A program made the position numbers and the translations under genes. Below are positions 46,384-64,000 of a DNA stretch of 64,000 nucleotides, one piece after another. This DNA is from Terracidiphilus sp. (GTDB lineage: Bacteria; Acidobacteriota; Terriglobia; Terriglobales; Acidobacteriaceae). The notes beneath the pieces are model-generated. The model was given only the letters and a program-made list of their open reading frames with translations, was not told the DNA's origin and did no database searches. Where the stretch lies: assembly GCA_049522975.1 (NCBI GenBank), contig JBEKNI010000012.1, forward strand, positions 29,920-93,919, given 5' to 3'. Numbering within the stretch: position 1 is the stretch's first letter; each line of letters starts with the position of its first letter.

Positions 46384-49300
46384 TTACTTCACCGTCAAGC
46401 TGAATGTCGTCGTCTGGGTCACATTGTTCGCGCTGCTGCTGGCGCCGCCGCCGGCAGTCGGAGCCGTTGCGACGGCAGTAATTGTTACCGTCGATGAGCC
46501 GGACGGCGTCGTGAAAATGTCGCTGCCGGTCCCGCAAGCAGCCACTCCCGCCAGAGATGCGAGCAAAATGCAACCCGCCGCGCATTGCATCAACAGCCGC
46601 CGCCTAGCATTCCTGTTGCTTGCCAGACCGAAGAGGCTCAGGCCCAGCAACAGGCCGCTCCACCAGAAGATCCCGGTCGGCGTCACAATCGGGGCTTGAT
46701 TGACCAGCACCGTGAGCTTGGTCTGAAGGGGAGGAACAACCGTCGGCGAACTGCCACTCTGTTGCGCCAACACAAGCACATCCGGAATGAACTGGCAGGT
46801 TGCATGCGCGGGCAATCCGCTGCACGAGAAATCCACCGTTCCCGAGAAGGCGGATTCCGATGTCGCGGTGATCGTCATGGAGCCGGGATTTGTGGCCGAC
46901 GAATTAACGCTGGTCGCGGTCTGCGTCAAGACAAACGTGGGAATGGCAATGATCAATGGCACGGCCGCCGATGCAGATGAGGTATAATTCGCGTTTCCAC
47001 CGTAGGTGGCCACAACATTGTAATTTCCCGCCGCCAGTGCAGTCGGCCCGGTCGTAGTCAGCACCGCCGTATACGTCGTGGTCGGGTTCGTGGTCGAGCC
47101 CGAGGTCTGGCCAACTAGATACGCAGTGCCCAGCGTCGTGCCTCCGCTGGAGAAAACCACCGGCCCGGAAAGCGCCCCGGAGATTGACGGAACCACCGTG
47201 GCGGTCATCACCACCGTATCGCAGGTATTGGTGGAGTTGGGCGGTTCGGCGGAGGTCGGATCCGCCGCGCAGGCCACAAGCGATAGCGTTGTTGCCGACG
47301 TGGCCGGCACAATCTCCACGATCAGCACGTCGGAGGTCTTCGACCCGTAGTTGGTGTCGCCCTGGTACTGAACCGTAACGGAATGGCTGCCTCCGCTCAG
47401 ACCGGAAAGAACAATCGATGCCGCGCCGGTGGAGTCGAGCGTCTGCACCCCATAGTAGTTGTCATCGACGTAGAACTGTACATCTCCGGTTGGAGTGGCT
47501 CCGCTGCCGCTCTTGGGGGCAACGGTTGTCTGAACTGTGACCGAACTGCCGTAGGTGGCGTTCCCGCTGGGGGCTGTCTGCGCCAGCGTGATCGTGACCT
47601 GCGGCAGGCTCTCTCCGTATCCGGTCAGCAACAGCGAGGGAGAGGCGGTATTCTGAGCGCCGGTCGCTAAGTCGACTGTATAGCTCTCCGTCCCGACTTG
47701 CGTGGGCGTGAAAGTAGCCTCCAGCGTGCAACTGTAGCCGACTGCCAGCGTGTCGCCCGCAGTGCATCCATCGCTGGAGGCGGGCGATATCGAGAATTGC
47801 GATCCGGAAGGAAAGGCCGGATAGAGGGGCGAAGCCAGAGCCAACCCCACCTGGCCGGAACTGGAAAGGACTGCCGTATCCGAGGTGCTGGTGTTCACCT
47901 TTCCAAAGTTGACCGTCCCTGAGGTCCGGTTCAGAGCATATGCTGCCGCATTGGCGCTGTCGGTCGCATAGACGTTTCCAAAAGCATCCAGCGCAACCGC
48001 GTACGGGCTGAGGATGGATTTGGCGCTGCTGACGACGGTCTGGTCGCTTCCCGCCAGCACTCCGTTTTCATTCGGTACACGCCAGATCCGGCCAGAGCCG
48101 TCGTCGGCGATCAGCACGCTTCCCGAACCGTCTACCGCCAGGCTCGTCGGATTCTCCAGGTTGCTGCCCACATTGCTGATGACTCCATCGGCGGACTCGA
48201 CCACGTTGCCTTTGTCTGCCACGTAGACCGTGTAGTTGGCGTCAACCGCCACTGCCGTCGGGGCGTTGAGATTCGGAATCGGCAAAACCGTCGTCAATCC
48301 GCTGGTTAACAATCCGCTGGGCTTGGCAAAGGCAAGCACATCGTTGCCGCCGGCCTCGGGAATGTACAGCGTGCCGCTCAGGTCCACCGCCAACTGGCCG
48401 GGCGACTGCAGATTGTTCAGAAGGGTGCTCTGCGATGCAGTGCTCAGAACGCCCCCGTTGCTCGGGACCACCACTACGCGATCATTGCCCGTATCGGAGA
48501 TGTACAGGTTGCCTGCCGCGTCGGTCGCCACACCACCCGGCGCCTTCAGGCCGCTTCCTACCGAAGTACCTGCGCCGGAGCCTCCCGCGTATTCATAGAC
48601 GGCATTCGCGCCGGCATCGGCAACAAAAACGTTGCCCGCTGCGTCCACGGCCACCGCGTCCGGTGTCTTCAACCCGCTGCCGATTGTAGTCAGCGTTCCA
48701 GGATCGACCGTGATCGCCTGACCGGTTCCAACGCCGGACAGGGTGATAGGAACCGCATCCCCGGCCGAGTCCGTAAGGGTCAGGATCGCGCTGCGCAGTC
48801 CCGGCTCAGCCGGCGTGAATTGAACGACAACCGTGCAGAAGGTGCCGGCCGCATTGGAAGTTGCCGGGGCACCAATCACGCAGGTGCCGGCATTCGTGCC
48901 GGTCACAATGGAAAACTCCGACGAGGGCACACCCGCAACAGTGACGGAACTGGATTGAAGCGTGATCGGAGTCGAGCGGTTGAAAGTCAGAGTCAGCGTC
49001 GCCGGTGCGCTGGTGGAACCGAGGGCGGTGGCGGGAAACGACGCATTTCCCACTGTGTACTTGTAGATGGTGTTGTAGTCAACCGTCTGGAAGATATTGC
49101 CATGCAGATCCACCGCAACGCCGATATCGCTGATATTCCATGGCCCGGCATAACCGGGATAGGAGCATTGCACCGTCGTATTGTTCGGTCCAGCGCAATA
49201 GGAGACGGTGTCCAGCGGGAAGACCATGAACATATCGGCGGGATTCAGCGCGCCGTTCTCCAGAGGTATCTCGTAGATGCCTCCATTGACGGTGCCCGCG

Positions 49301-50337
49301 GTCTTGCTTGTCTTCCCGTTGTCGGTCACGTAGAGGTTGCCGGCTTGATCGAATGCCACGCCCTGCGCGTCGATAAAGCCCGGAATGGCCTTCACGGTTT
49401 GCGCGCCTGGAGTGCCTGCCACAATTTCCCATACCGTGTTTGAATTATTCGCTACGAAGATATCGTCCGCGGCGTCCACGGCAATCGAATCGATGTAGTT
49501 CTGGTCCTTATTCGTAGGAGTCCCAGGGTCGCTGAATTGGTACACCTGAACCGGGGGCGCGCCGGAGTAGTTGCACTCCACGCTGCACTCAAAAATATTC
49601 GGCCCCCCGTTGCTATCGCTAAAGGTGGCCATGAAGCTGTTGCCCGCCGGGTCAAAGGCCAGCGCAGCAAGCTGATAGTAGCCTCCAACCAGCGAATTGG
49701 TGTCAGTCCCCGCAAGGTCCACAACTCCCGGAGCGTAATAATAGACCGGAAAGTCGTAGGAGCAGGCGGAGGTCGAGGTCAGCGTCACGACCCCGTTGTT
49801 CACCGTGCCCGTGCAAACCGGGGGAACGGGCGGCGCGCCGCCGCTATAGCTGGACCCGTTGACCGGATTGGTGAAGGACGTATATTTGCCGTTTATATAC
49901 GGGATCATCGTTGTGACGCTTGAATACAGCTCGGAAACGATCAGGTTTCCATAGGGGTCCACCGCAACCGCACCGGTATGGCCGCTGCTATCCGAGAAGT
50001 AGAGATTCACGTAGGGAACCGACCCGGTGACCGGGTTGAAGGAATTCATCCCGCTGGCCGGAAACTCGGTGACGGCGTTCGAGTTATACCCGCCAATGAA
50101 CAGATCGCCGAATTTGTTGACTGCCAGCGTTCCAAATCCAGCACCTTGCAACACCGGCGTGCCCGGCGGCGGAACCCACTGCGTAAGCGTGGTCTGCGTC
50201 GTCGCCACAAACGGCGGCGTATTCTGCGCCAAGCAGTTGTTCCCCGGCAGAAACATCCAGGCGAACAAAAGCATGACTAGCGCGCTTGCGGCGCATACCG
50301 GCCTATCCCGCAATACATCAGCACAATCCATCGGCAT
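46384..50337 (-). CDS. Large exported NHL-repeat/Ig-like surface protein A with C-terminal 2-TM plus lipobox-like tail
   Basis: AGGAG RBS at MPMD, signal peptide, many P..VAVD..GN.(F/Y)(V/I)AD repeats, Big_3_5-type TPTGDVQF domains. Confidence 0.9.
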   Translation of the reverse strand: MPMDCADVLRDRPVCAASALVMLLFAWMFLPGNNCLAQNTPPFVATTQTTLTQWVPPPGTPVLQGAGFGTLAVNKFGDLFIGGYNSNAVTEFPASGMNSFNPVTGSVPYVNLYFSDSSGHTGAVAVDPYGNLIVSELYSSVTTMIPYINGKYTSFTNPVNGSSYSGGAPPVPPVCTGTVNNGVVTLTSTSACSYDFPVYYYAPGVVDLAGTDTNSLVGGYYQLAALAFDPAGNSFMATFSDSNGGPNIFECSVECNYSGAPPVQVYQFSDPGTPTNKDQNYIDSIAVDAADDIFVANNSNTVWEIVAGTPGAQTVKAIPGFIDAQGVAFDQAGNLYVTDNGKTSKTAGTVNGGIYEIPLENGALNPADMFMVFPLDTVSYCAGPNNTTVQCSYPGYAGPWNISDIGVAVDLHGNIFQTVDYNTIYKYTVGNASFPATALGSTSAPATLTLTFNRSTPITLQSSSVTVAGVPSSEFSIVTGTNAGTCVIGAPATSNAAGTFCTVVVQFTPAEPGLRSAILTLTDSAGDAVPITLSGVGTGQAITVDPGTLTTIGSGLKTPDAVAVDAAGNVFVADAGANAVYEYAGGSGAGTSVGSGLKAPGGVATDAAGNLYISDTGNDRVVVVPSNGGVLSTASQSTLLNNLQSPGQLAVDLSGTLYIPEAGGNDVLAFAKPSGLLTSGLTTVLPIPNLNAPTAVAVDANYTVYVADKGNVVESADGVISNVGSNLENPTSLAVDGSGSVLIADDGSGRIWRVPNENGVLAGSDQTVVSSAKSILSPYAVALDAFGNVYATDSANAAAYALNRTSGTVNFGKVNTSTSDTAVLSSSGQVGLALASPLYPAFPSGSQFSISPASSDGCTAGDTLAVGYSCTLEATFTPTQVGTESYTVDLATGAQNTASPSLLLTGYGESLPQVTITLAQTAPSGNATYGSSVTVQTTVAPKSGSGATPTGDVQFYVDDNYYGVQTLDSTGAASIVLSGLSGGSHSVTVQYQGDTNYGSKTSDVLIVEIVPATSATTLSLVACAADPTSAEPPNSTNTCDTVVMTATVVPSISGALSGPVVFSSGGTTLGTAYLVGQTSGSTTNPTTTYTAVLTTTGPTALAAGNYNVVATYGGNANYTSSASAAVPLIIAIPTFVLTQTATSVNSSATNPGSMTITATSESAFSGTVDFSCSGLPAHATCQFIPDVLVLAQQSGSSPTVVPPLQTKLTVLVNQAPIVTPTGIFWWSGLLLGLSLFGLASNRNARRRLLMQCAAGCILLASLAGVAACGTGSDIFTTPSGSSTVTITAVATAPTAGGGASSSANNVTQTTTFSLTVK

Positions 50338-50447
50338 CGTTTTTCTCCTGATCTCCATGTCCGTCCGTCGCCCTTTCTCCCGCCCTTGCTCTTGAATCGA
50401 TCTGCGGCAAGCCAGCCTACCGCAGATCACGCTCTTCGCCGCCTGCG

Positions 50448-53400
50448 TCAGAAGCTGTACTTCATGCTGATTTCCATCACCCGGCGGCCCACTTTATAGG
50501 GCGTAATGCCGAACTGCGAGTTATATTGGATCGCTTGCGTCGGGTCGTAGTTGGCTGGGTTGATAAAATCCAAAGTCTCCTGGTTGGGCGAGACATTGGA
50601 AAACGTCACCAGTGGATGATTCAGGAAGTTGAAGGCCGCGCCGCTGATCTGAAACGTCTGGCGATCGTTCAGATGAAAGTCCTTGCGCACCGTCAAATCC
50701 GATTGGAAGTAGCCCGGCCCGTGGATGTACGGATAAATCAACTTCCCATTGCCAGTCCCGATCTGCGGCAGGGCGAAGCAGTTGCCATTGATGTACTGAT
50801 GCGCTTTCAGATTCGAGCGCGGGTCGCAGGTCAGCAGCGGCTGGAGCGATACATCCGGCGTGCCCAGGAATACGATACTTGAAACATTGGTTGGGTTGAC
50901 GCCGCCATTGACAAAGTTTCCGGGAATCGAACCGGGGCCGAGCTGCCCTTCCAGGCCGAAGTTCGTTCCATAGCTGGTTGCCTGCAGGTTGGGACCGCTC
51001 TGGTAGCCCGTATAGCCGGAGATCTCCCAATTGTTCGCCGCCGCCCCCAGAACCCGGTTGCCGTGTATATGCGAACCCAGGGCCACGACGTACCAGACAT
51101 TGAAGATATGCGAGCGATCATAGGCCAGCGGACCGTAGTCGTTCCATACATTGAAGGAATCGCCCGGATTCCCGTTGTTGTAACCGCCGCGAACGCCCAT
51201 GGCCTTGCTCCAGGTGTAGTTTGCTCCGTAGGTGAGCCACCCCTTCGACCTGTTCCAGGTGACCTGCAAGCCGTTGTAGTTCGCGAAAAGCTTATGCGCC
51301 TCCAATTGCAGTTGTCCGTAGAGCGGGTACGGTCTCCAATCATTGATGGAAGGCACCGTCAATGTGGGATTTCCGCCCATGCCTTGCAGGGACGGGGGAG
51401 ACCACGTGGTTCCAGCGTACGGATTCGGTCCCAGCTGCCAGTAAAACTGGTTGGTCGTTGAATTGAGTTTGATGGTAACGACCTCCTGAGCGGGATCGGG
51501 CTGAAAAAGGCCATTCGGCTTGATCGCATTCACGTTATCCACCGTGATCCCGCCATTGCTGCCATCGTTCAGAATCGAGTTGCTGTTATTGCCCACATAC
51601 CCGATGGCCAGCGTCGTGCCAAACAACTGCTGAGTCAAGGTCAGGCTGTAGGTCGCCGTCAGCGGCTGCTTGTGGTCGGAGGGATCAAATCCGAATAGAC
51701 CGGTCGTTCCCAGCGAACTCAACACCACGGACGGGTCGCTCGGATTCAACTTCAGGCTGCCCAGATAGCCCAGCGTCAGCCCATTGCTGTTGCCCACGTA
51801 ACCGATGGTGGAATAAGGATTCGTCACCGATATGGTTCTCTGCCCGGTGGAAACCGCCAGCGCGTTGGCAACGTCGTTCCAGTTGTCGTGGAAGCGATAC
51901 CATCCATAGCCGCCGCTTATTACGGTCTTCCCGTTTCCGCGGATATCCAGGGAAAAGCCGGCGCGCGGATCAAGGAAGAGCGGCGTCACCGTCTGCCCGG
52001 AATTCGGTGTGGACGAGTCTCCAGCTAGCGAGTGCCACCGGAAGCCCGGCAGCGGATGGGCCGCCGTGGGGGCCGAGTCTGTCGCCGCCCAGGCCTGATA
52101 GTCCGCCGGAATCCAGACCGGAATACCAACTTTATGCGCATCCTGCCACTCGCCCTCATGCTCCACGCGCAATCCCAATGTCAGAGTCAGGTTCGAGCGC
52201 ACCTTCCAGGAGTCGGTGGCGTAAAACGCCGAACTCCACCAATAAAGGTCGATCTTGGGAAGAGTGTTCGCCTGGAGGTACTTAAAAAATTCGCCTTCCA
52301 GAAAATTGGCCAGGTTGTTGCCCGTCCCGCTTCCGCAGGTGTTGTTACAGGAGTTGTCATAGTTGTACAGTTGCGTGGTCCCGTCAGGAGCAACAGTCGG
52401 AAGCTGGAAACTCGGGTTGACGTAGTAGTTTTGGATGGCGCCGTTGGTGGGGATGCTCCCCGAGTTCGGATAGACGGAATTGTCCATCGCCTTTTCCACG
52501 TTCACGCCGAACTTGAAGGTGTGCTTGCCCCACACCTTGGTCAAGTCGTCGCCGATGCCGGGCGTCATTCTTTTGGTGGTGATTGCCCCGTAGCTGTAGT
52601 CGGGAAACAGGCCGATCGGCAGGCCGTTGTATCCGTAATCGTTCAACGTGGGGAATTGCTTGGTCCCGTTTTCATAGGCGCTCGTATTCAAGCCTGGTTC
52701 GCCCAGCGAGGCGGTTGTCAGTTCGGCCGCGTCGCCGGCGTTGAATAGCTGGTTGACATAGGCCAGCGAAGCGAAGGCCTCGTTGGTCAACGTGGATGAA
52801 AACACCCGCGTCCAATGCAGGGAGGCGCTCTGCGAATTCGTCGATTCTATCGAGCCCCCCGGCAAATTCACGCCGCCCGACGAACCGGAGGCGAAATAGT
52901 AGTTGCCCTGGGGAACGCCGGTGAATCCGCTCTCTATGGTGTACACCCCGTAGATCTTGCTTAGCTCGCTCTGGGCAAAGTCAATTCGCCCGTGCGCCGT
53001 CCACAAATCGTTATTCACCAGGTTGTTCTTGATGAAATTGTAGCCATTCTGGTTCGCCTGTCCGTCCGGATTCGTGCTGGTGACTCCAACATTCGGCGAC
53101 GGCAACAGCTTCATGATGGTCAGAGCGGCTTTGTCAAGATACGGAGCCATGCAGCCGTTCGTGGGAGAGCTGTAGGCGTTGGTGCAGTTGATATGGACGC
53201 CGCCGGCGTCTTGTCCGGGTCCGGGAACCAGTCCCTCTGTGGGAACAGCGGTTACGGCGCTCCACAGGCCATAGCAGGGCCCCGTCAGACCGCATGGAGT
53301 CACCGAGCATGTGTCATCGTTGCACTCGGACGCTGCTCCGGGGGGAAGGTATTTCTGAATTTGCGCGGGACTGAGATCCCCTTTCAACATGCTCGGCGTC

Positions 53401-54497
53401 GGCACCACGGCGTGGTAGATCGCCTGGCCAGGGTTGTTGTACGAGTAGACATTCCGCTGCGCATAATCCTCCGCCTGCGCGAAGAAGACCAGTCTGCCGC
53501 TGTGGTTGAAATTCTTGCCCGGAAATCTGAGCGGACCGCCCAGGGTCGCGCCCGGATAGATGTACCGGTCGTCCGGCTTTTTCAGGTGCCCGCTCGGGTC
53601 CAATCCAGCCACCAAGGCATCGGTCGCATTCATTTGATAGGTCCGGCCATGCAGGTAGAGCGTTCCGTGGATTGTCGAACCGCCCGACTTGCCGACCGCG
53701 TTGATCACCACCGGACCGTTCGCCGTGTCCGCGCCGAAGTTCGACTGCTCCACCTTCACCTCGGCCGTCGTGTCGGTATTGACGGTCTGCGTGCTGCCGC
53801 TGTAACTGCCAGGGTCGTTCAGGTTGATGCCGTCCGAGCGCACGCTCACGCCGTTGACGGGCGACCCGCTCATCGCGTAGTTGCCGCTTCCGCCCGTTAT
53901 CGTTACCTGGCCTGGATCGTAGGTGGTGTTGCTTGCCGAATTACTACTAAACGATCCGCTACCGGTGTTGATCGCCGAGCCGGGAAGTAGCTTCATCAAT
54001 TCGGTGACGTCGCGGCCTTCCGTCGACAGGTGCGCCAATTGTGCGGCGGTGATCAGGTCGCTCCGCTCGCCCGTCTCCAGAACACTGGACACATCGGCGT
54101 TCACGGTCACCGTGATCGTCTCGACGCCGGGAACCATCTTGACGGAACTCAGCGTGCGCGCGTCGCCTGGATCAAGGTGAATCCCCTTCTGCACATTCAC
54201 CTCAAAGCCCTGAGCCTTCACCGTCACCGTGTAATCGCCTGAATCGAGCGAGGAAAAACTGAAGATGCCCACGCCATTCGTCTTTACGGTGCGAAGGAAT
54301 CCGTTCGACTGGTTCTTCGCCGTCACCGTTGCTGCAGGAATCACGGCTCCGGTTTGGTCCGAGACCACCCCGCTCAAGGACGCGGTGATCGTCTGCGCCA
54401 GGAGCGGTCTTTGCCCAATGCCTGCCAGAACCAAAATCAAAAGACCCAGGCTTACCCAGGTTGACGTACCTTTACTCGACCACGGCCTCAAAATCAT
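50448..54497 (-). CDS. Oar-like TonB-dependent receptor (CarboxypepD_reg N-terminus), copy 1
   Basis: SLSGVVSDQTGAVIPAATVT, EVKVEQSNFGAD, GKSGG, LTLGLRVEH, DPRAGFS, terminal MKYSF. Confidence 0.93.
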   Translation of the reverse strand: MILRPWSSKGTSTWVSLGLLILVLAGIGQRPLLAQTITASLSGVVSDQTGAVIPAATVTAKNQSNGFLRTVKTNGVGIFSFSSLDSGDYTVTVKAQGFEVNVQKGIHLDPGDARTLSSVKMVPGVETITVTVNADVSSVLETGERSDLITAAQLAHLSTEGRDVTELMKLLPGSAINTGSGSFSSNSASNTTYDPGQVTITGGSGNYAMSGSPVNGVSVRSDGINLNDPGSYSGSTQTVNTDTTAEVKVEQSNFGADTANGPVVINAVGKSGGSTIHGTLYLHGRTYQMNATDALVAGLDPSGHLKKPDDRYIYPGATLGGPLRFPGKNFNHSGRLVFFAQAEDYAQRNVYSYNNPGQAIYHAVVPTPSMLKGDLSPAQIQKYLPPGAASECNDDTCSVTPCGLTGPCYGLWSAVTAVPTEGLVPGPGQDAGGVHINCTNAYSSPTNGCMAPYLDKAALTIMKLLPSPNVGVTSTNPDGQANQNGYNFIKNNLVNNDLWTAHGRIDFAQSELSKIYGVYTIESGFTGVPQGNYYFASGSSGGVNLPGGSIESTNSQSASLHWTRVFSSTLTNEAFASLAYVNQLFNAGDAAELTTASLGEPGLNTSAYENGTKQFPTLNDYGYNGLPIGLFPDYSYGAITTKRMTPGIGDDLTKVWGKHTFKFGVNVEKAMDNSVYPNSGSIPTNGAIQNYYVNPSFQLPTVAPDGTTQLYNYDNSCNNTCGSGTGNNLANFLEGEFFKYLQANTLPKIDLYWWSSAFYATDSWKVRSNLTLTLGLRVEHEGEWQDAHKVGIPVWIPADYQAWAATDSAPTAAHPLPGFRWHSLAGDSSTPNSGQTVTPLFLDPRAGFSLDIRGNGKTVISGGYGWYRFHDNWNDVANALAVSTGQRTISVTNPYSTIGYVGNSNGLTLGYLGSLKLNPSDPSVVLSSLGTTGLFGFDPSDHKQPLTATYSLTLTQQLFGTTLAIGYVGNNSNSILNDGSNGGITVDNVNAIKPNGLFQPDPAQEVVTIKLNSTTNQFYWQLGPNPYAGTTWSPPSLQGMGGNPTLTVPSINDWRPYPLYGQLQLEAHKLFANYNGLQVTWNRSKGWLTYGANYTWSKAMGVRGGYNNGNPGDSFNVWNDYGPLAYDRSHIFNVWYVVALGSHIHGNRVLGAAANNWEISGYTGYQSGPNLQATSYGTNFGLEGQLGPGSIPGNFVNGGVNPTNVSSIVFLGTPDVSLQPLLTCDPRSNLKAHQYINGNCFALPQIGTGNGKLIYPYIHGPGYFQSDLTVRKDFHLNDRQTFQISGAAFNFLNHPLVTFSNVSPNQETLDFINPANYDPTQAIQYNSQFGITPYKVGRRVMEISMKYSF

Positions 54498-54573
54498 CCC
54501 TTCCTCCATTCAACTCTTCTGCCATCCAGCGAGCGCTGGCGTTGCGGCGATCCTTCGATCCTTCAATTCCCGA

Positions 54574-54585
54574 GGTATCGTTACC
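54574..54585. promoter_or_regulatory. Imperfect palindrome GGTATCGTTACC, candidate operator
   Basis: 10/12 palindromic with central CG, between the predicted promoter and the receptor start. Confidence 0.35.
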
Positions 54586-54618
54586 GAAGCAACAACAAAA
54601 AACTTTTTTGAACAGACG

Positions 54619-54648
54619 TTTATAGCCCGGACTAGCGCGGGTTGTCAA
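54619..54648 (-). promoter_or_regulatory. Sigma70-type promoter TTGACA-N18-TATAAA
   Basis: 6/6 and 5/6 matches upstream of receptor 1. Confidence 0.65.
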
Positions 54649-54963
54649 GGACCGGAAGTTCGACATGGGATTGCCCCATGGCTGACAAAAGCGCTCAGGA
54701 CCCCAGATGGATGAAGATTCCCTGCCCACGCTTCCATTGGCCTTGCCGGATCAAAGGGGCCGGCCAACCAACCTTCATGGAATGAAGAGCTTCCGCCGAA
54801 TCTCTCGCGGCCGCCATTCCTCCCCAGCGACAGAGGCCTTTGAAAGGCCCGCCTCACTCCCAAGCCTCGAATCCCCGCGCAACGCGCCAACTGCAAACTT
54901 CTGCGCCTTCTCACTGAGAGCGGCCGTTCTGCCCGGCTCCGCCCGAAATCCCCGCTCCAATCC

Positions 54964-57900
54964 TCAGAAATTGAATCTCGCCGAAACCTCCATGACGCGC
55001 CTGCCGGTCTTGAATCCCGCATAGCCGAAGCATGGTGAATCGACTACGCTGCAACTGGCGCCGTTATTACTCCCGTGCTGGAGCTTAACCGAAGAAAAAT
55101 CCGGCCCGCTCATCTCCAGGTTCGCCTCGTTTCCATAGCGCGAGTTGAACGAGGTGATGGGATGGTTGAGAAAATTGAAGGCGGAGACGCGAAACTCAAG
55201 GTTCTTCTTTTCGGCCAGCAAAAGCCGCTTCTGCAGCGTCAGGTCCGAGGCGAAATAATGGGGCCCGCGAATATAGCCCAGGTTTGCCGGCCCATTCTGC
55301 CCATAAGGCGCTACTCCAAAACAGTTGCCATTGACGAATTGATTCTTTTGGAGATGGGCTGTCGGATTGCAAGTCAGCGTTGGCATCACCAACATATCTG
55401 GAGTTCCCAGCAGCGTTATATTGTTGATGCTCAACGCCGTCGGGGCGGAGGGCGGCCCGACAAAACCGCCCAGACCTAGATTCGGACTGGACACCGCCTG
55501 CATATTGGGACCACTCTGCACGTTGGTGATGCCGCTGAGAAACCATCCGTTGATCACGCCGTTCAGGACACGGCCCCGGCGGAAGAGGGCGCCTTCGTCA
55601 TACGAGTATTGCGCGTTGAATACATTCGTCCGGTCGAAGGCCAGCGGACCGTAATCCGCGCGCAGATTGGTTGCATCCGTGGTCCCGCCGTTGTTGTACG
55701 CGCCGCGCACTCCCAGGGCCTTGCTCCAGGTGTAGTTGAAGCCATAATTCAAGCGCCCCTTCTGCCGGTTCCAACTGCTCTGCAGGGCATTGTAATTGGC
55801 CCAGGTGATGTGCCGCGGAACCAGAATCCATTGGTAGAACGGGAAAGGCCGATAGTCATCCTCCTGAGCAGCCCCGTTGTTTGAATTGAAAACCTGGCCA
55901 TAGTATGAACTTTGAGGGTTTGGATCCGGCTGGAAGAGGCCGCCCAACGGAATAGTGTTGACGTTCTGAATATCCACCGGGATCGTCGTGGAAGCCGTAT
56001 CGGTCAGCAGATACTCGCTTTGGTTGCCCACATAGGCAACCTCGAATGCCGAACTCCAGGGCGCTCGCTGCGAGATCGTGAAGCTGTAGGTCATGGTCAG
56101 AGGCTGCTGGTCGTCCGACGGATCAAGCGCCGAAATCGAGTTTCCGTTGGCTTGGTAGACGCCGCTGGGGGCATTTTGCACGCCCGCCAAACTGATCCCG
56201 GATCCGCCGGCTTGGCGAGTGATCACTCCCTGGGAGGTTCCCGCAGCCGCCGCAAAGTCGTTCCAGGAGTCGTGGCTGCGGTACATTCCCCATCCGCCGC
56301 GCAACACCGTCTTGCCCGTGCCGAAGAGGTCGTAGGCCAAGCCGAAGCGCGGAGAGACGAATGCGATTCGCGTCTTGTCGCCGGACAATGGAACGCTGGG
56401 CAGAACCAGGGGATAAATATCGCTGCCTTTCCCCTTCCCATGCCTGCGCACACCTGGCATATTTGTGACGGGAGTGGTGGCCGTGGGAGCGTCTTCGGCA
56501 TACCACTTCGGGCTGAATACCGCAATGCCCTGTCCGTGAGAATCCGTCCAGGCTCCCAGATGATCCAAGCGCACGCCCAGATCCACGGTCAGCCGCTTGC
56601 TCGCCTTCCAGGAATCCTGCGCAAACCCCGATAATGTCCAGTAGTAAATATTCGTCGAAGGATTGAAGTTCTGCTGGGTGAACGAATCGACATCTCCCAG
56701 CATGAAATCGGCCAGGTAATTGGCTCCGCACCCTGCAAAGTGGCATTGCGCCGTATAATGTGTGCCGGCCGCATCGGTAAAGCTCCCCGCTGGAACATAG
56801 TAATTCCAGATCTGGCCGTTGGTCTCCGGGCTGAGATCCGTTTGGTTTGCGGTATCGCGCTCGATGTACGCTCCAAACTTCAGGGAGTGGGACTTGAGCA
56901 GGAAATTGAAGTTGTCGCCCGCCGAGGGAATGAACTTCTTCGAGATATACCGGCCATTGCTGAAGTCCGGTGTAATGGCCAGAGGCAGGCCATCGGAGCC
57001 ATAGTCGGCCAGTTGCGGAATATCGTCGGAACCGCAGTAGGGACACGCCGTGGTGCGGGTGTAGATGCCGTTGTAGGGATAGTTCCATGTGCTCTTGAGC
57101 AGCTTGCTCGGGTCTCCGGAGTAAAAGTACTGGCCGACGTAGGAGACCGATCCGGACACTTCATTGGTGGCCCGCGCGCTGAAGATATGCGAGTAATTGA
57201 GACTGGCTGTGTTCGATGTTGTCGAACTGGTGATCTTGCCCGGCGTATCGATGCCGCCCATATACGAATTGCCGCCCGAAGGAGAGTAGTAGATCTGCTC
57301 CGGAACGCCGGTCGTGCGCCCGTATTCGGTGTTATAAACCCCATAGACCTTGTTATTGTCATTGGCGGCTATATCCACGCGCGCGCGAACCTGGAACAAA
57401 CCAGGATTATTCAGATTCAGAGTGCGCCAGTTGTAGCCGTTCACCGTGGGACCGGTCGGCAACGGCATTTCGGCTTTCAGCAAAGCCGCGGCGCCTGGAT
57501 CGAAACTCCCGGCGCCGTTAAGGAATTGACCGCCCGTGCTGCCAACGGTGCTGATTGTTCCGTCGGATGTGAACGGCTCTGCGCAGACATGATAGTACTG
57601 GGTGAGCGAATCCGGGGTCGTGTCGCTGGCCGTGCAGTGGGCTGTGATCGTCGCTTCATCCTTGCCCAGATAATTCGCCAATTCGGCCTGCGAGAAGTTG
57701 CCCTGCCGCATGCCCGGCTCGCCGCTGGCAAACTTCACATTCGTGCTCTGGTCCGTGGGCACCAGCGCGGCGATCAACGAGTTCAGCGGCGAACCGTAGG
57801 AATACACGTTGCGCTGCACATAGTCTTCGCCGCCTACGTTGAAGACCACTTTCTTGTTGCTGTTGAACTTGCTCCCGGGGATCTTCACCGGGCCGCCGAC

Positions 57901-58809
57901 ATTGAATCCGGGGTAGATGTATCTGTCCGGAATCTGCGGCAGTTGCTCGTATTTCATGAACCAGTCTTCGGAGTTCAACTGCGAGGTGCGGGCGAACCCG
58001 TACACCGTCCCGTGGTACTCCGAGCTGCCCGACTTGCCGACCACCGTAATCACCGTCGGCCCCTTGGCCGAGTCCGCGCCAAAGTTCGATGTCTCGATCT
58101 TTACCTCGGCGACCATGTCCATGTTTACAGTTTGCGTCTGATCGCTTTCATTGCCCGGATCGGTTACGTTCGCGCCATCGGAAATCACGCTTGCCCCATT
58201 GCCTGGAGCGCCATTGCCAACATAGTTCGACAGGCCGTTTCCGCCTGTGCCCACCACCGATGGATCGGAGCCAATCCCGTTGTTCAGCCCGTTCTGCAGA
58301 ATCGCGAAGCCTGGCTGCGTCTTCAGCAACTCGCTCACATCCCGGCCTACCGTCGAAAGCCTCTTCATGTCCGCCGCGGTGATCAGCGTGCTGCGCTCGC
58401 TGGTATCGATGACCTCGTTTTCCGCCGTCACCGTCACCGATGCGCTCACGCTGCCCACCCTAAGGCTGATGATCGGCAGGGTGCGCGTATCGTTCGGATG
58501 GAGTTCGATGCCGCTCTCCGTGTAAACGCCGAAACCGACGCGTTCCACCCTCAGCGTATAGACCCCCGTGGGAACCGCGCTGAACTGGTATACGCCCTCG
58601 CTGTTGGTTTTCGTTTTACGAGTGTCCTTGGTTGCCTCGTTGACCAGCGTGACGATAGCCTCGGGCACCCGCGCGCCAAATGTATCGGCGACAATTCCGC
58701 CCAGCGACGCATTTACGGTTTGGCCTGCCGCCGGCCGAAGAAGCATGGTTGCGCCGAGCAATAGAATCACCACCTGGAGAAGAAGCGAACGCATTGAGAG
58801 TCTCATCAT
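54964..58809 (-). CDS. Oar-like TonB-dependent receptor, copy 2
   Basis: Signal peptide from MMRLSM (alternative start 58932 overlaps the upstream stop); paralogous motifs to copy 1; terminal ARFNF. Confidence 0.93.
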   Translation of the reverse strand: MMRLSMRSLLLQVVILLLGATMLLRPAAGQTVNASLGGIVADTFGARVPEAIVTLVNEATKDTRKTKTNSEGVYQFSAVPTGVYTLRVERVGFGVYTESGIELHPNDTRTLPIISLRVGSVSASVTVTAENEVIDTSERSTLITAADMKRLSTVGRDVSELLKTQPGFAILQNGLNNGIGSDPSVVGTGGNGLSNYVGNGAPGNGASVISDGANVTDPGNESDQTQTVNMDMVAEVKIETSNFGADSAKGPTVITVVGKSGSSEYHGTVYGFARTSQLNSEDWFMKYEQLPQIPDRYIYPGFNVGGPVKIPGSKFNSNKKVVFNVGGEDYVQRNVYSYGSPLNSLIAALVPTDQSTNVKFASGEPGMRQGNFSQAELANYLGKDEATITAHCTASDTTPDSLTQYYHVCAEPFTSDGTISTVGSTGGQFLNGAGSFDPGAAALLKAEMPLPTGPTVNGYNWRTLNLNNPGLFQVRARVDIAANDNNKVYGVYNTEYGRTTGVPEQIYYSPSGGNSYMGGIDTPGKITSSTTSNTASLNYSHIFSARATNEVSGSVSYVGQYFYSGDPSKLLKSTWNYPYNGIYTRTTACPYCGSDDIPQLADYGSDGLPLAITPDFSNGRYISKKFIPSAGDNFNFLLKSHSLKFGAYIERDTANQTDLSPETNGQIWNYYVPAGSFTDAAGTHYTAQCHFAGCGANYLADFMLGDVDSFTQQNFNPSTNIYYWTLSGFAQDSWKASKRLTVDLGVRLDHLGAWTDSHGQGIAVFSPKWYAEDAPTATTPVTNMPGVRRHGKGKGSDIYPLVLPSVPLSGDKTRIAFVSPRFGLAYDLFGTGKTVLRGGWGMYRSHDSWNDFAAAAGTSQGVITRQAGGSGISLAGVQNAPSGVYQANGNSISALDPSDDQQPLTMTYSFTISQRAPWSSAFEVAYVGNQSEYLLTDTASTTIPVDIQNVNTIPLGGLFQPDPNPQSSYYGQVFNSNNGAAQEDDYRPFPFYQWILVPRHITWANYNALQSSWNRQKGRLNYGFNYTWSKALGVRGAYNNGGTTDATNLRADYGPLAFDRTNVFNAQYSYDEGALFRRGRVLNGVINGWFLSGITNVQSGPNMQAVSSPNLGLGGFVGPPSAPTALSINNITLLGTPDMLVMPTLTCNPTAHLQKNQFVNGNCFGVAPYGQNGPANLGYIRGPHYFASDLTLQKRLLLAEKKNLEFRVSAFNFLNHPITSFNSRYGNEANLEMSGPDFSSVKLQHGSNNGASCSVVDSPCFGYAGFKTGRRVMEVSARFNF

Positions 58810-58928
58810 GATCGGCACCGGCCTTCCCTGAGTTTGCTTTTGCTGCTCTATCTCTGGCTCGCATACTGGATTCGGCACTGTAGCGAGCTTCCTTGTTCGT
58901 GCGCTGGGTGCAACTCCGCTGGCTGTCA

Positions 58929-61900
58929 TCATTGCACCGTCAGCGCGATCTGAGCCGTCTGCGTGACCGTGACGGACGTGGTCGCGCTGCTCGCGTAACT
59001 TCCATTGACAACCAGCGAGACGGTCTTTTGTCCCTTTGGCGTAACCCCGATCAGAGTATTGCCGCAGCCAGTCGCCGTCATTGCGCCAACGCCGCCGCAC
59101 AGCAGCAGGATCAAAAGCATCCATCCGCGATATTTCTTCCGCAGCCTGCGCCGCGCGAGTCCCAGGGGGGTAAGCAGCAGCAATGCCAGGAAAACAGGCA
59201 AGCTATTGCCTTTCCCCGGCATTCGCAACTCTCCAACTGGCGGCTGGGGGTGGTTTGGCACCTGATCCGAGAGAATTTCTACGGTTATCAACTGCGGATA
59301 GCCGCTGAACAGTTCTTGTCCCTCGCCTACCGGGTTGTTCCCATTCAAGCCTTCACTGCCCGCGGCAAAGGTGAAAGCGCAGGCGGAGTTGGCTGGCAAT
59401 CCCGAGCACGTCGCTACGATGCCGCCTTGAAAGCCGGCCACCGAAGTCACGGTAAACGTCAGGCTGCCCGGCGTTCCCGCCGTCACGGTCAGGTTGGCCG
59501 TGGAAGGCGTGATGGTGAATGTCTCCGGACTGACGATCAGCGTCGTGGCGCCAGACTGAGAAGCGGCGTAGTTCAGATCCCCGCCGTAGGATGCGACGAT
59601 GTTCAAAGTGCCCGCGGGCAGCGTGGTAGTGGTTAGCGCGGCGACATAGTTAAGTTGAGGAGGACTCCCCACCGAAACCGGAAGCACCGGCGCGCTGCCA
59701 AGCACCGTGGTACCACTTAGAAACGTAACGGTGCCGGTAGGGCCGGGCGTGAGAAAGGGAGATACTATGGCCGTCAGCGTGACGCTGCTTCCCGTCGCCG
59801 CGCTGAGCGGATTGGTTGCCACGCCGGTGATGGCCAGCGCGCTCGCGGTTGGCACTTGCGCCACCGTCAGCGTGGCCGCGGAGAGCGTGCTGCACGATTC
59901 ATAGTCGCTGTTGCCGCTGTAGGAGGCCGTAATTGCGTGGCTTCCTCCCGACAATCCGGTCAGCATAAACGTGGCGATTCCCGTCGCGGAGACGGAGGAC
60001 GATCCTTGCACCTGCCCATCGACGCTGAAGGTCACCGTCCCGGTCGGCGCTCCGAGCGAGAACCCGCCTGTTGCAGTCAGCGTAGCTGTCACCGTCACCG
60101 TCTGGCCGAAGACCGAGCTTCCGCTCGCGGGCGAAGTCACGGCAACCGAAAGCTGTGTGGGCAACAGGTTGGCTCCCTTGCCCGCCAGCACAAGCGTTGA
60201 AGTAGTGACAGCTGAACTGGAGAAGGTCAGCGTCTCCTGATTGGTTCCCGGCTTGGTTGGCGAGAAGACGGCGCTCACAGTGCAATCAAAACCCGGCCCC
60301 AGGGTTCCCGAGGATTCGCAGCCGCCCGATGACGGGCTGCTGACAGTAAAGCTGCTCGTATCTCCGGCCGAGGTATAAAGCGATGCCCCAAAGGTCAGCG
60401 TCTGATTTCCCGTATTCCCGATCGTCGCCGTCTCCGAACCGCTCGATTCTCCAAGATTAAAGAACCCGAACTGGAGGTATCCCTCCGTGCGCACGATCTG
60501 CTCAACCAGTTGGCCGGCGGCATCGGAGACATAGAGATCGCCATTGGAATCGATGGCCACTGCGTATGGGTTTGCAATCCCCGCGCCAACATTGATCGCG
60601 CCGGTGGAATCCAGCGTTCCGCTCTCGTTCGGGACGCGGATGACCCGCCCGTTTCCCGTATCCGCGATGTAGAGGCTGCCCGACGCGTCGATGGCAATTC
60701 CGCTGGCCGCGTTCAGGGTGGTGATGATCTGTTGCTGTGTTCCGCTCCAGGCCTGAACTTCATATGCGGTGTCCTGGTCGACGATGAAGGCATCGCCGGC
60801 CATATCGGTGGTCACGGCCAGAGGCGCGGTAAAGTTGGAGCCGACGGTTGCGGCTAACGCCGAATCCGGCATGCCTCCCGTGTTGGGCAGCCGCCAGACC
60901 TTCTTGTTGCCGCTATCCGCGATATACAGATTCCCGCCCGCATCGACGCTCAATCCTGCCGGCCCTGAGGTTCCCGAATACAGCACAACCTGGCTGGCAT
61001 TCGAAATGGTGCTGTTCACCACCGGCACTTCCACCACTCTGCCGTTGCCCGCGTCGGCGATGTAGACGTTGCCCGCCCCATCGACGGCCACGCTGGAGGG
61101 TCCTTTCAAACCGCTACCTATAGTAGCCAGCAGCGTTCCGGCTAGCGAGTATTCGTAAACCGCGGAGGCTGCGCTGTCGGCAACGTATACATTCAGCGCG
61201 TTGTCGATGGCGATGCCCTCCGGAGATTGCCATTTGCCAACGATTGGCGTAACCGTGCCCGGATCGACGCTCTGCGCCGCACCCAGCCCGGCTCCGTAAA
61301 GATATCCGGTCGCAATCGGGGCTCCCGTCGAATCAGCAAGAACCACCGCTCCCGATTGTGTCCCGGCGGCGCTGGGAGTATATGTCACGGTCACGCTGCA
61401 ACTCGATCCCTGGACCTGCGCGGTGCCCACGGCGCATGCTCCGGTTCCCCCGGCGGCAAGCGCAAAGGAACCGCCGGCGGGCAAGGCGGAGATGCTCGCG
61501 GGAGTGGCAGTGGCCGCGGCGTTGAAGGTGAAATTGAGAGTGAGCGCGGCGCTAGGTTTGCCCACCGCCAGCGAACCGAGGTTGGCGCTCCAGAGGTTCA
61601 TCTCGTCAATCGTTGTGGCGCCGTCCGTCGTGCCCCCCGGGGGGGGAATGTTGGGGTTGTAACTGCTGTAGTAGATGTTGCCCAGCTGATCCACCGACAC
61701 TCCATTGCCGGAGTAGAGATAGCCGAGGGTATACTGCTGCGCCGTATCCAGCGCGCCGTTCACATTCGGAATCTCGACCAGCCGGTCATAGCCCGTTGTC
61801 ACGCCCCCGGTGGTCACGCTTTGGTCGGTGATGATGAGATTCCCAAAAGCATCCACGCCCACGCCGGCAGGCGCAGTCACGCTGACATTCAGTATGGAAC

Positions 61901-62705
61901 TGGCTGGCGGCTTCGTGCCAGCCGCAACGCTAGAGCCGGCCGCGAAATAGTAGACGTTGACGCCGTTGGCATAATACACATTGCCTGTTGAATCGACCGC
62001 CATCTGGCCCTGGTACGCCCCGATCGTGCCGAATGGCAATTGGTCCGCGATCAGCACGACATCGTCTGGCTGATTGGTCTCGATCGAGTTAGCCGGAATC
62101 ATGAAAATCCGATGGTACCGGGAACCCGTATCGACATTGTCTTCGCCGTCCATAACATACAGATTGCCGCTGGCGTCTAAGCCAACCTCGTCCGGCTGCA
62201 TATAGTAGCCGGTAGCATTGCCGCCACTGCTACTGAGTGCAAGGCAATCGCCTGTGAGCGCGGCCGGATACGTCGGGCAGGAAGAAAGGCTGGATTCTAT
62301 CTGATTCGCTTGATAGCTCCCGCTGATGTAGGGAATCACGATGATCTCGCCAGGATAATAGTCTTTGGCCACATAAAGATTGTTGGAAGTGTCGACCGCC
62401 ATGCCTTTCAAGCTGTCCGCGGCGTAGTTGGCGGTGGTTGTATACGTAAGCAAGAGGATCGGAGTCGGATTGCCGGGCACGAGTTCGTAGACGTATCCCT
62501 CGTAGATTCCATTGGCGGGCTTCACATTCTGGTTCACACTATCCACGTAGAACAGATCGCCCAGGCTGTTCACCGCCATATGGTGGGTGTTGGTCAAAAG
62601 CGCGGGAACCAGCGTCTGGCTCGAGCTGACCACCACTGCCGGCGCCTGCGCGCTTGCAGCCGCGGCCCAGCAAAACAACAGAAAAACCGTCAGCGATAAA
62701 GCCAT
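58929..62705 (-). CDS. Large exported NHL-repeat/Ig-like surface protein B with C-terminal 2-TM plus lipobox-like tail
   Basis: Signal peptide MALSLTVFLLFCWAAAASA, NHL repeats, Ig domains; same architecture as protein A. Confidence 0.9.
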   Translation of the reverse strand: MALSLTVFLLFCWAAAASAQAPAVVVSSSQTLVPALLTNTHHMAVNSLGDLFYVDSVNQNVKPANGIYEGYVYELVPGNPTPILLLTYTTTANYAADSLKGMAVDTSNNLYVAKDYYPGEIIVIPYISGSYQANQIESSLSSCPTYPAALTGDCLALSSSGGNATGYYMQPDEVGLDASGNLYVMDGEDNVDTGSRYHRIFMIPANSIETNQPDDVVLIADQLPFGTIGAYQGQMAVDSTGNVYYANGVNVYYFAAGSSVAAGTKPPASSILNVSVTAPAGVGVDAFGNLIITDQSVTTGGVTTGYDRLVEIPNVNGALDTAQQYTLGYLYSGNGVSVDQLGNIYYSSYNPNIPPPGGTTDGATTIDEMNLWSANLGSLAVGKPSAALTLNFTFNAAATATPASISALPAGGSFALAAGGTGACAVGTAQVQGSSCSVTVTYTPSAAGTQSGAVVLADSTGAPIATGYLYGAGLGAAQSVDPGTVTPIVGKWQSPEGIAIDNALNVYVADSAASAVYEYSLAGTLLATIGSGLKGPSSVAVDGAGNVYIADAGNGRVVEVPVVNSTISNASQVVLYSGTSGPAGLSVDAGGNLYIADSGNKKVWRLPNTGGMPDSALAATVGSNFTAPLAVTTDMAGDAFIVDQDTAYEVQAWSGTQQQIITTLNAASGIAIDASGSLYIADTGNGRVIRVPNESGTLDSTGAINVGAGIANPYAVAIDSNGDLYVSDAAGQLVEQIVRTEGYLQFGFFNLGESSGSETATIGNTGNQTLTFGASLYTSAGDTSSFTVSSPSSGGCESSGTLGPGFDCTVSAVFSPTKPGTNQETLTFSSSAVTTSTLVLAGKGANLLPTQLSVAVTSPASGSSVFGQTVTVTATLTATGGFSLGAPTGTVTFSVDGQVQGSSSVSATGIATFMLTGLSGGSHAITASYSGNSDYESCSTLSAATLTVAQVPTASALAITGVATNPLSAATGSSVTLTAIVSPFLTPGPTGTVTFLSGTTVLGSAPVLPVSVGSPPQLNYVAALTTTTLPAGTLNIVASYGGDLNYAASQSGATTLIVSPETFTITPSTANLTVTAGTPGSLTFTVTSVAGFQGGIVATCSGLPANSACAFTFAAGSEGLNGNNPVGEGQELFSGYPQLITVEILSDQVPNHPQPPVGELRMPGKGNSLPVFLALLLLTPLGLARRRLRKKYRGWMLLILLLCGGVGAMTATGCGNTLIGVTPKGQKTVSLVVNGSYASSATTSVTVTQTAQIALTVQ

Positions 62706-62909
62706 TCCCCGCTTCCCGCCGCCCGGAAGCCCCATTCTGTCTGCACGAACGCCACAACCGCTATGCGCTCTTCCACCGCGTGTCCAGAAAACCTTGAATT
62801 CTCCCACGTCCTGCCTCCAAAAAATCGCCCTGTCTCTTCCCCTGCCATCGCATCTTCCGCGCCCCATCCATTTTAGATTCTGAGCGCAACATCTGCCAGC
62901 GACCGTACT

Positions 62910-62923
62910 TGTAAGCGTTTTCC
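62910..62923. promoter_or_regulatory. Candidate LacI-family operator TGTAAGCGTTTTCC
   Basis: 9/10 match to TGNAANCGNTTNCA, just downstream of the predicted TSS. Confidence 0.55.
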
Positions 62924-62934
62924 TAGCAACAGAA

Positions 62935-62964
62935 ATGATAGGACGGCTGAAATGTCGTTGTCAA
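62935..62964 (-). promoter_or_regulatory. Sigma70-type promoter TTGACA-N18-TATCAT
   Basis: 6/6 and 5/6 matches upstream of protein B. Confidence 0.65.
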
Positions 62965-63243: not shown

Positions 63244-64000
63244 CTATTTGTGCACAGTCAGTGTGAAGTCGGCTGACTTTACCAGCGAAGGCGTGGTGGA
63301 CGTGGCGGTTACCTTCACCGTCGTTGTACTGAAGGTCGGCGACCACTGCGCGCCGCAGCCGGTGAACAGACCCAGGCCGATCGCGCTGATTGCCAGCACA
63401 AGCAGCATCTGCAAGCGGCGGCGCTTCTTGAAGCCCAGGAAGCAGCACAGAGCTGCCGCCAGCGTCGCCCCTGGAACCAGCGGGTTGGAGTTGGAGCGGG
63501 CCACAATCGAGTTTGCCGTCGTAGCGATCGTGACCGACGCTGAAATGGGCTGTGACCCAGTAGGCGTGATGGTTACCGCGGGGCACGTTGCGCCGTCAGG
63601 CAATCCCGAGCAGGTAAAGGTGATACTCGACGGGAAAGTGGGATCTGGCGCGATCGTTGCCGTCACCGTGCCGCTTTGTCCGGCTGTGATATCGAGCGAT
63701 GTCGGAGTGATCCTAAACGTGAAGTTCGGTGGGATTGAGCTGATGACGTAGGTGGCCGTTGCGACCGTGCTTGCAGTGTAACCCGCCTCCACGGCAATGG
63801 CCTTGACGTTATAGGTTCCGGGGTTGGCTAACGCAATGGCGCCCGTGTACTTGCTTGAGCCGGTTGTCGGCGTCGAGCCGTCTTTGGTGTAGTAGATCGT
63901 CGCTCCCGCCGTGGTCGTGCTGAGAGCTACAGTGGTTGCCGTCCCATAATACGTGCCGCCCGGGATGCTGAACGTGGGTGTGGCAACCGTGCCGAGAGAA
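63244..64000 (-). CDS. C-terminal part of exported surface protein C (CHB_HEX_C/Fn3-associated and Ig domains, same tail); 5' end outside the window
   Basis: Open frame runs to the window edge: VATPTFSIPGGTY..ATIYYTKDGSTPT, then a CSGLP Ig domain and 2-TM-FTGC tail. Confidence 0.9.
   Translation of the reverse strand, partial: SLGTVATPTFSIPGGTYYGTATTVALSTTTAGATIYYTKDGSTPTTGSSKYTGAIALANPGTYNVKAIAVEAGYTASTVATATYVISSIPPNFTFRITPTSLDITAGQSGTVTATIAPDPTFPSSITFTCSGLPDGATCPAVTITPTGSQPISASVTIATTANSIVARSNSNPLVPGATLAAALCCFLGFKKRRRLQMLLVLAISAIGLGLFTGCGAQWSPTFSTTTVKVTATSTTPSLVKSADFTLTVHK

Follow-up and report, generated by a model that had tools for sequence, protein, structure and literature searches.

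Several described systems lie close to the locus reported here. In the SusC/SusD pairs of Bacteroidota, the gene of a TonB-dependent barrel adjoins that of one dedicated accessory protein. In the BtuB/BtuG system of Bacteroides, a beta-propeller surface lipoprotein captures the ligand and caps the TonB-dependent transporter (PMC10404256). The carbohydrate-utilization (CUT) loci of Xanthomonas and Caulobacter are SusD-free and combine a TonB-dependent receptor (Oar-like receptors included) with carbohydrate-active enzymes and sugar regulators (PMC1790865). Oar of Myxococcus xanthus consists of a CarboxypepD_reg extension, a plug with a TonB box and a barrel, and has been implicated in the export of the protease PopC, which has no signal peptide and whose gene is not reported to be paired with oar (PMC6434023). 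We analysed a 64,000-nucleotide stretch, hereafter the window, of contig JBEKNI010000012.1 from the peat soil acidobacterium Terracidiphilus sp. (assembly GCA_049522975.1, positions 29,920 to 93,919 of the forward strand). It carries two copies of a two-gene module, present in three copies in this genome, in which a predicted Oar-class barrel (R1, R2 and, on another contig, R3) adjoins a very large accessory protein (A, B and C, respectively).

Positions 46384-62867 of the window were filled by four large minus-strand genes, as read from the open reading frame (ORF) listing and the translations, transcribed in the order B, R2, a 455-bp gap, R1 and A. Partner B (58929-62735, minus strand) lies in a longest ORF that extends to 62867, with a likely signal-peptide start at 62705 or 62735, and its stop codon precedes the signal-peptide start of barrel R2 by about 117 bp. 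R2 (54964-58809, minus strand; longest ORF 54964-59124) has this start, MMRLSMRSLL, at about 58809. Barrel R1 (50448-54509, minus strand) is a paralogue of R2 with 38% identity over the full length, and its stop codon is followed after 17 bp by partner A (46384-50430, minus strand), whose start codon is uncertain (candidates 50430, 50358 and 50274). A and B display 31% identity over their full length (E = 3e-127). The original prediction, made from the DNA letters alone, had described mirror-ordered operons (promoter-B-R2 and promoter-R1-A) with paralogous receptors and with A and B sharing one architecture; the four ORFs, the promoter-like sites described below, the end-to-end identities of both pairs and the common domains and tail of A and B all agree with this description.

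Domain analysis with Pfam indicated that R1 and R2 are probably Oar-class TonB-dependent transporters. Both contain an N-terminal CarboxypepD_reg extension (PF13620; 67.9 bits in R1 and 59.2 bits in R2, cut-off 32.3) and a PF25183 OMP_b-brl_4 domain (337-349 bits). The Plug domain (PF07715) was matched in R2 (26.5 bits, cut-off 23.9) and not reported in R1, though this region of R1 aligns well with R2. Between the extension and the plug lie the motifs ETITVTV (R1) and SVTVTAE (R2), with ESIVVTA as a third motif, all read by eye and unscored; we take the first two to resemble the TonB boxes of BtuB, FhuA and FepA. All three barrels end in a C-terminal Phe (...KYSF, ...RFNF and ...KYNF). The receptors had been described as having Cys-rich loops, which was overstated, as each barrel has just 10 Cys in about 1300 residues, although these do form five close pairs. 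No relative of the barrel profile was found in the PDB by sequence, and the NCBIfam models gave zero matches to R1 and R2 at E ≤ 0.01, so no SusC/RagA model was matched.

The partners are about 1300 aa in size, and Pfam assigned NHL, SBBP, Big_3_5 and HYDIN/VesB-type immunoglobulin-like (Ig) domains to both A and B. In B the order is a signal peptide, an N-terminal NHL-type propeller, an Ig domain, a central six-bladed NHL propeller, Ig/Big_3_5 domains and a C-terminal tail. An AlphaFold2 model of A residues 62-472 (pTM 0.81, mean pLDDT 70.6) was compared with known structures by Foldseek, and the top 50 matches listed were six-bladed NHL-type propellers, among them the PknD sensor and the Pizza designs, i.e., generic NHL propellers only, with no specific functional fold for the N-terminal domain. 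The central region of A also matched an NHL propeller fold by sequence. Together the two matches indicate that the partner is predicted to consist of two NHL-type propellers with Ig domains between and after them. Databases list the partner under generic names, among them ‘sugar lactone lactonase YvrE’ and ‘Ig-like domain repeat protein’.

The C-terminal tail of A (46387-46671, minus strand) contains a transmembrane helix and an Arg cluster, then a second helix whose last residues are the lipobox-like VAAC, and finally some 50 residues of beta strand; the tail of B (58932-59216, minus strand) has the same layout, its second helix ending in ATGC. This organization was retained over the last ~100 residues in all 24 aligned partners, as a hydrophobic helix, an Arg cluster, a second helix closed by a lipobox-like motif whose Cys is invariant, a TP.G motif and two beta strands; an AlphaFold2 model of the C-terminus likewise displayed two helices followed by two high-confidence strands. 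The NCBIfam ‘lipo-invert’ tail model NF058595 matched A at 25.6 bits, under its cut-off of 37, and B was not listed; our literature search on this tail returned nothing. The N-termini of A and B read as type-I signal peptides (AAASAQA and NCLAQN), the lipobox-like motif being C-terminal. Because of this combination of termini, the term surface protein, used for A and B in the original prediction, is kept here only provisionally. The same helix/Arg/lipobox-Cys/beta tail was observed on about 16 genes of this genome, which code for large Ig-rich proteins and are mostly located away from barrels (examples, as contig number and positions, are C5:46858-51414, C7:78308-81961, C9:72987-75464, C13:25121-28381 and C85:2586-5564). 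One sub-type of the tail carries the motif G-I-P-A-R-R-R and a Gly-rich run after the Cys.

About 18 Oar-like barrels were detected in the genome by phmmer. R1, R2 and R3 scored 600-770 bits against one another, and all other Oar-like barrels scored at most 120 bits. The third pair, R3-C, lies on contig 3 with C 78 bp after R3, and C is the closest paralogue of A and B. Pairing was therefore complete within the subfamily (3/3), each barrel adjoining one of three mutually closest NHL/Ig/tail proteins. Genome-wide, only about 4 of ~16 tail proteins and 4 of ~18 Oar-like barrels were paired. A general rule by which a tail-bearing partner would accompany all Oar-like barrels was rejected, since most barrels and about 12 of the ~16 tail proteins are unpaired; it also failed among more distant NHL/Ig/tail homologues (loci L120, L121 and L126-L133), none of which had an adjacent barrel.

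A cross-genome scan with one genome per species returned 80 related loci, all but four titled Acidobacteriota and mostly from Acidobacteriaceae (Terracidiphilus, Granulicella, Bryocella, Terriglobus and metagenome-assembled genomes). In a tree of the 62 full-length barrels, a 45-member clade contained four partner-bearing clades (R3-type, R2-type, L010-type and R1-type), within which a same-strand partner was located beside 19 full-length barrels of other genomes in addition to the three own pairs, with barrel-partner intergenic gaps of at most 147 bp. The sole exception (L035) lies at a contig end. A partner also followed four truncated or fragmented barrels (L034, L041, L048 and L055). Mapping the presence of a partner onto the barrel tree required 3 changes compared to about 18 in shuffles. 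The partner tree resolved four clades with exactly the same loci as the four barrel clades, and pairwise divergences of barrel and partner were strongly correlated (Mantel r = 0.90, a value reached in 0 of 2000 permutations). Part of this correlation is shared species history, which does not explain the matching of the paralogous clades. Gene order was clade-specific, the partner being upstream only in the R2 type (L049 and L114), and the entire B-R2-gap-R1-A-LptFG-CopA layout recurred in metagenomic contigs with an A orthologue of 69% identity. When tested in reverse, partner homologues with the N-terminal propeller adjoined a barrel (L114, L116, L117 and L123), and distant homologues sharing only the central NHL/Ig part were mostly without an adjacent barrel. 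Barrel and partner have thus been duplicated and inherited as a unit, diverging in parallel.

The proposal that A and B are dedicated partners of the barrels consequently held at the genomic level, with three of three own pairs, matching clades and a recurring mirror order. Pairing was conserved wherever the flanking sequence exists in the four clades, and co-phylogeny of barrel and partner was likewise confirmed. The distribution proved narrower than the phylum: among 301 genomes sampled across it, only those of Acidobacteriaceae gave strong full-length matches to the partner, although this survey scored just two candidates per genome and the distribution is a lower bound. No published account of this barrel-partner pairing was found.

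Several variants of the module were observed. In L116, L117 and L123, which come from other genera and from one genome of the same genus, a tandem of two tailed partners comes after a single barrel, so the module can carry more than one accessory protein. In L006 (6436-9837) and L007 (6168-9617) a tail-less NHL/Ig protein of about 1140 aa is encoded directly upstream of the R1-type barrel, which is thereby flanked on both sides by partner-like genes. Barrels split into two or three ORFs occur in L044 (a Tunturiibacter lichenicola plasmid), L047, L055 and L066, which may reflect frameshifts or pseudogenes; the partner next to the split barrel of L055 moreover does not match the tail pattern.

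The neighbouring genes point to glycans. Gene D, whose 3' end occupies 63244-64000 (minus strand) and which runs beyond the window end, codes for a 2189-aa protein with three propeller modules, each like the N-terminal propeller of the partners, a CHB_HEX_C/Fn3_assoc domain and the same C-terminal tail. Upstream of D are a 199-aa ORF and, on the same strand as D, a glycoside hydrolase family 44 (GH44) gene, the latter matching PDB 3fw6 (E = 1e-78); the contig ends inside this gene. The stretch from D to GH44 corresponds to contig positions C12:93163-102647 (locus L002). Within 10 kb of the 13 R3/C-type loci, GH74 was present in 8, GH39 in 6, GH44 in 5 and GH31 in 5. At the one locus checked (L036), the GH74 protein matched the xyloglucan hydrolase PDB 2cn2 (E = 1e-145). 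A GH1 gene follows the Bryocella pair (L011), and one metagenomic locus has the order GH44-LacI-barrel-partner. The combination of GH74, GH44 and GH31 is the classical xyloglucan enzyme set, and for this reason xyloglucan or a beta-1,4-glucan is named here as the likely class of substrate.

A membrane protein with two malectin domains is encoded within 10 kb in 12 of these 13 R3/C-type loci, as the divergent upstream gene where neighbours were listed. The protein of our own genome (L001:5080-6663, contig 3, divergent from R3) was observed to have 527 aa, one transmembrane helix and two periplasmic malectin domains. Its N-terminal cytoplasmic domain had no Pfam match even at E ≤ 1, and it contains the motif VFGR...RLRKRLK, which we take by eye to be winged-helix-regulator-like. 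This protein may act as a ToxR-like sensor of oligosaccharides for the barrel-partner operon, a regulator label that is based on topology and the by-eye motif.

A further clade of 22 barrels lies inside the 45-member clade, next to R1 (SH-like approximate likelihood ratio test, SH-aLRT, 81), and is without a partner. Most of its members have a GH31, GH39 or GH3 gene directly after the barrel, and a divergent membrane protein upstream where inspected. The barrel can therefore work without a partner, and this clade is consistent with an importer that can lose its accessory protein or have it replaced.

We propose, with a probability of roughly 0.6, that the region belongs to a locus for carbohydrate uptake, with xyloglucan or a beta-1,4-glucan as the most likely substrate, in which each barrel acts with its cognate giant accessory protein. 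The partner would be exported by Sec and anchored to the envelope via its C-terminal helix/Arg/lipobox tail; the two NHL-type propellers on their Ig stalk would bind the polymer or oligosaccharide; the partner would then hand the substrate to its own barrel for TonB-energized import, and periplasmic exo-glycosidases would complete the breakdown. B-R2 and R1-A would represent two such modules back to back. The original prediction had left import and export side by side, and of these import is favoured, on the basis of the glycoside hydrolase and sugar-regulator neighbours, the TonB-box motifs and the related partnerless barrel clade, with export correspondingly less so.

Several observations weigh against this proposal. 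The partner has no recognised carbohydrate-binding module and its propellers match just generic NHL folds such as PknD and Pizza, the substrate is assigned from neighbouring genes, which differ from one genome to the next, the locus yielded no inner-membrane sugar transporter, and the R3-C pair of our own genome has no glycoside hydrolase neighbour. The two tail helices could also hold the partner in the inner membrane facing the periplasm, in which case a surface lid is ruled out. The location of the tail, an outer-membrane lipid anchor or the inner membrane, is the main uncertainty for any lid model.

The same pairing could be read as a system for export, in which the Oar-class barrel would thread or display its own C-terminally lipid-anchored partner at the surface, powered by TonB. 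The class of the barrels is consistent with this, Oar being required for TonB-dependent PopC secretion, as are the presence of one barrel per partner or partner tandem and the strict co-diversification, and we know of no other surface route for such proteins in Acidobacteria. However, no barrel adjoins about 12 of the ~16 tail-bearing proteins of this genome, so a dedicated channel is not needed for this class of tail, and the partnerless clade, which persists beside exo-glycosidases, is hard to reconcile with a barrel whose role is to export a partner. A two-propeller protein of about 1300 aa would moreover be hard to thread through a plugged 22-strand barrel, and the PopC precedent differs both in lacking a signal peptide and in not being reported beside an oar gene. 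We regard export as improbable.

Somewhat less improbable, though still unlikely, is that barrel and partner are co-regulated and independent, the partner being a surface adhesin or enzyme for the same polymer that is co-transcribed with the barrel but neither forms a complex with it nor feeds it. The domain make-up would suit an adhesin or enzyme scaffold, combining Ig repeats with the fold class of lactonase/lyase-type NHL propellers, and D-like proteins and tail-less NHL proteins do neighbour the same loci. One-to-one clade matching and adjacency maintained through at least three duplications nevertheless exceed what is usual for co-regulation, and the N-terminal propeller is present in the barrel-linked homologues and missing from most of the unlinked ones. 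With about 18 Oar-like barrels and many NHL/Ig proteins in one genome, two gene families abundant in Acidobacteria might also come to adjoin by chance. This was rejected by the genome-wide and cross-genome counts and is highly implausible, given that three of three subfamily barrels stand beside the three closest partners, that the adjacency extends across genera and that the clades match.

If the uptake proposal is correct, the module would work like SusC/SusD or BtuB/BtuG, from unrelated parts. As in SusC/SusD, the gene of a TonB-dependent barrel adjoins one dedicated accessory gene whose product is probably lipid-anchored, the pairs have multiplied and co-diversified within the genome, and glycoside hydrolases and a sugar-sensing regulator are nearby. 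Unlike SusC, the barrel belongs to the Oar class, having both a CarboxypepD_reg extension and PF25183, and has no NCBIfam SusC/RagA match. The partner is built from beta-propellers and Ig domains, whereas SusD is an alpha-helical tetratricopeptide repeat (TPR) protein, and it combines a type-I signal peptide with a C-terminal lipobox tail in place of the N-terminal lipobox of SusD; gene order is also reversed in one clade. The absence of a SusD-like gene from the interval, noted in the original prediction, was upheld, as the four genes fill it and the SusD families PF07980 and PF14322 had no match in the whole 4.59-Mb assembly, with matches obtained in a control genome. The phrase ‘acidobacterial counterpart of SusCD’ is accordingly retained in a restricted sense: the functional analogy stands, while the SusC and SusD family tests fail and strong partners occur only in Acidobacteriaceae, so the module would be a functional analogue of SusCD and not a member.

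The likeness to BtuB/BtuG is that of a TonB-dependent transporter with a beta-propeller partner, here predicted from the genes. BtuG differs in being a single propeller for vitamin B12, whereas the ~1300-aa partner has two NHL-type propellers on an Ig stalk; the context is glycan in one case and corrinoid in the other, and BtuG was not among the listed top 50 Foldseek matches of the partner N-terminal propeller. The CUT loci share a TonB-dependent receptor beside carbohydrate-degrading enzymes, here GH44 at our own locus and GH74, GH44, GH39, GH31 or GH1 in relatives, and for sugar regulators the nearest equivalents are the LacI beside one related pair and the malectin-domain membrane protein. 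The CUT definition, however, lists no dedicated receptor partner, and the part of the locus covered here showed no inner-membrane transporter. Oar of M. xanthus is the same transporter subclass as R1 and R2, with the difference that the neighbours here indicate glycan import.

A promoter-like TTGACA-18-TATCAT (62964-62935, minus strand; 11 of 12 matches) lies upstream of B. A second such site, TTGACA (54648-54643)-18-TATAAA (54624-54619), is located in the R2-R1 gap upstream of R1 (54619-54648, minus strand) and was invariant in three orthologous R2-R1 gaps that have elsewhere diverged. Both predicted promoter-like sites are therefore present, with conservation in orthologues observed for the R1 site. 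A generic promoter scan was not above its shuffled control (5 sites compared to 6.1 expected), and for this reason only the conserved R1 site carries weight; its invariance within otherwise diverged gaps indicates that R1-A very probably has its own promoter. A conserved leader follows 3' of this promoter (54560-54600, minus strand), reading GGTAACGATACC..CCTCGGGAATTGA. Across the three orthologous gaps the elements GGTAACGATA(..)CCTCGGGAATTGAAG..ATCGAAGGATCGC of the leader were kept. The near-palindrome in the leader, GGTAACGATACC, could be a candidate operator for a LacI-type regulator, like the LacI encoded beside the related pair in L134. At the other end, the predicted 18-bp hairpin is present and perfect (46371-46334, minus strand, 13 nt after the A stop codon), although it lies just outside the interval, which begins at 46384, and is without a T-run; it may be a REP-type element instead of a terminator.

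In the sister (outgroup) barrel clade, the downstream same-strand gene was observed to code for a secreted all-TPR protein (L052, L057, L061, L063, L065, L068 and L069), and 7 of 16 loci matched a TPR query. The full-length proteins are about 680-755 aa, that of L068 being cut at the contig end, and shorter TPR proteins of about 365-450 aa occur in L045 and L072. A TPR partner beside a SusD-less TonB-dependent barrel may represent a second solution, SusD-like in fold class.

In soils, Acidobacteria belong to the most abundant bacteria and play a major part in degrading plant polymers. To our knowledge they have no SusD, and almost nothing is known of the way in which their many Oar-like TonB-dependent transporters acquire substrates. 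The three pairs within one genome, together with those of relatives, provide a set of cognate and non-cognate combinations usable for complex prediction and biochemistry, and at least one carrier, Bryocella elongata DSM 22489, is cultured. Should the display reading be true instead, the module would be a TonB-powered two-gene surface-display system that generalizes the single Oar/PopC case. If barrel and partner do form a complex, this would connect the unusual C-terminal lipobox tail with a function, and the solution of a barrel plus a lipid-anchored lid would have arisen independently from unrelated folds. A co-evolving barrel-partner module near xyloglucanase-type genes is a concrete candidate for the missing accessory component of these transporters.

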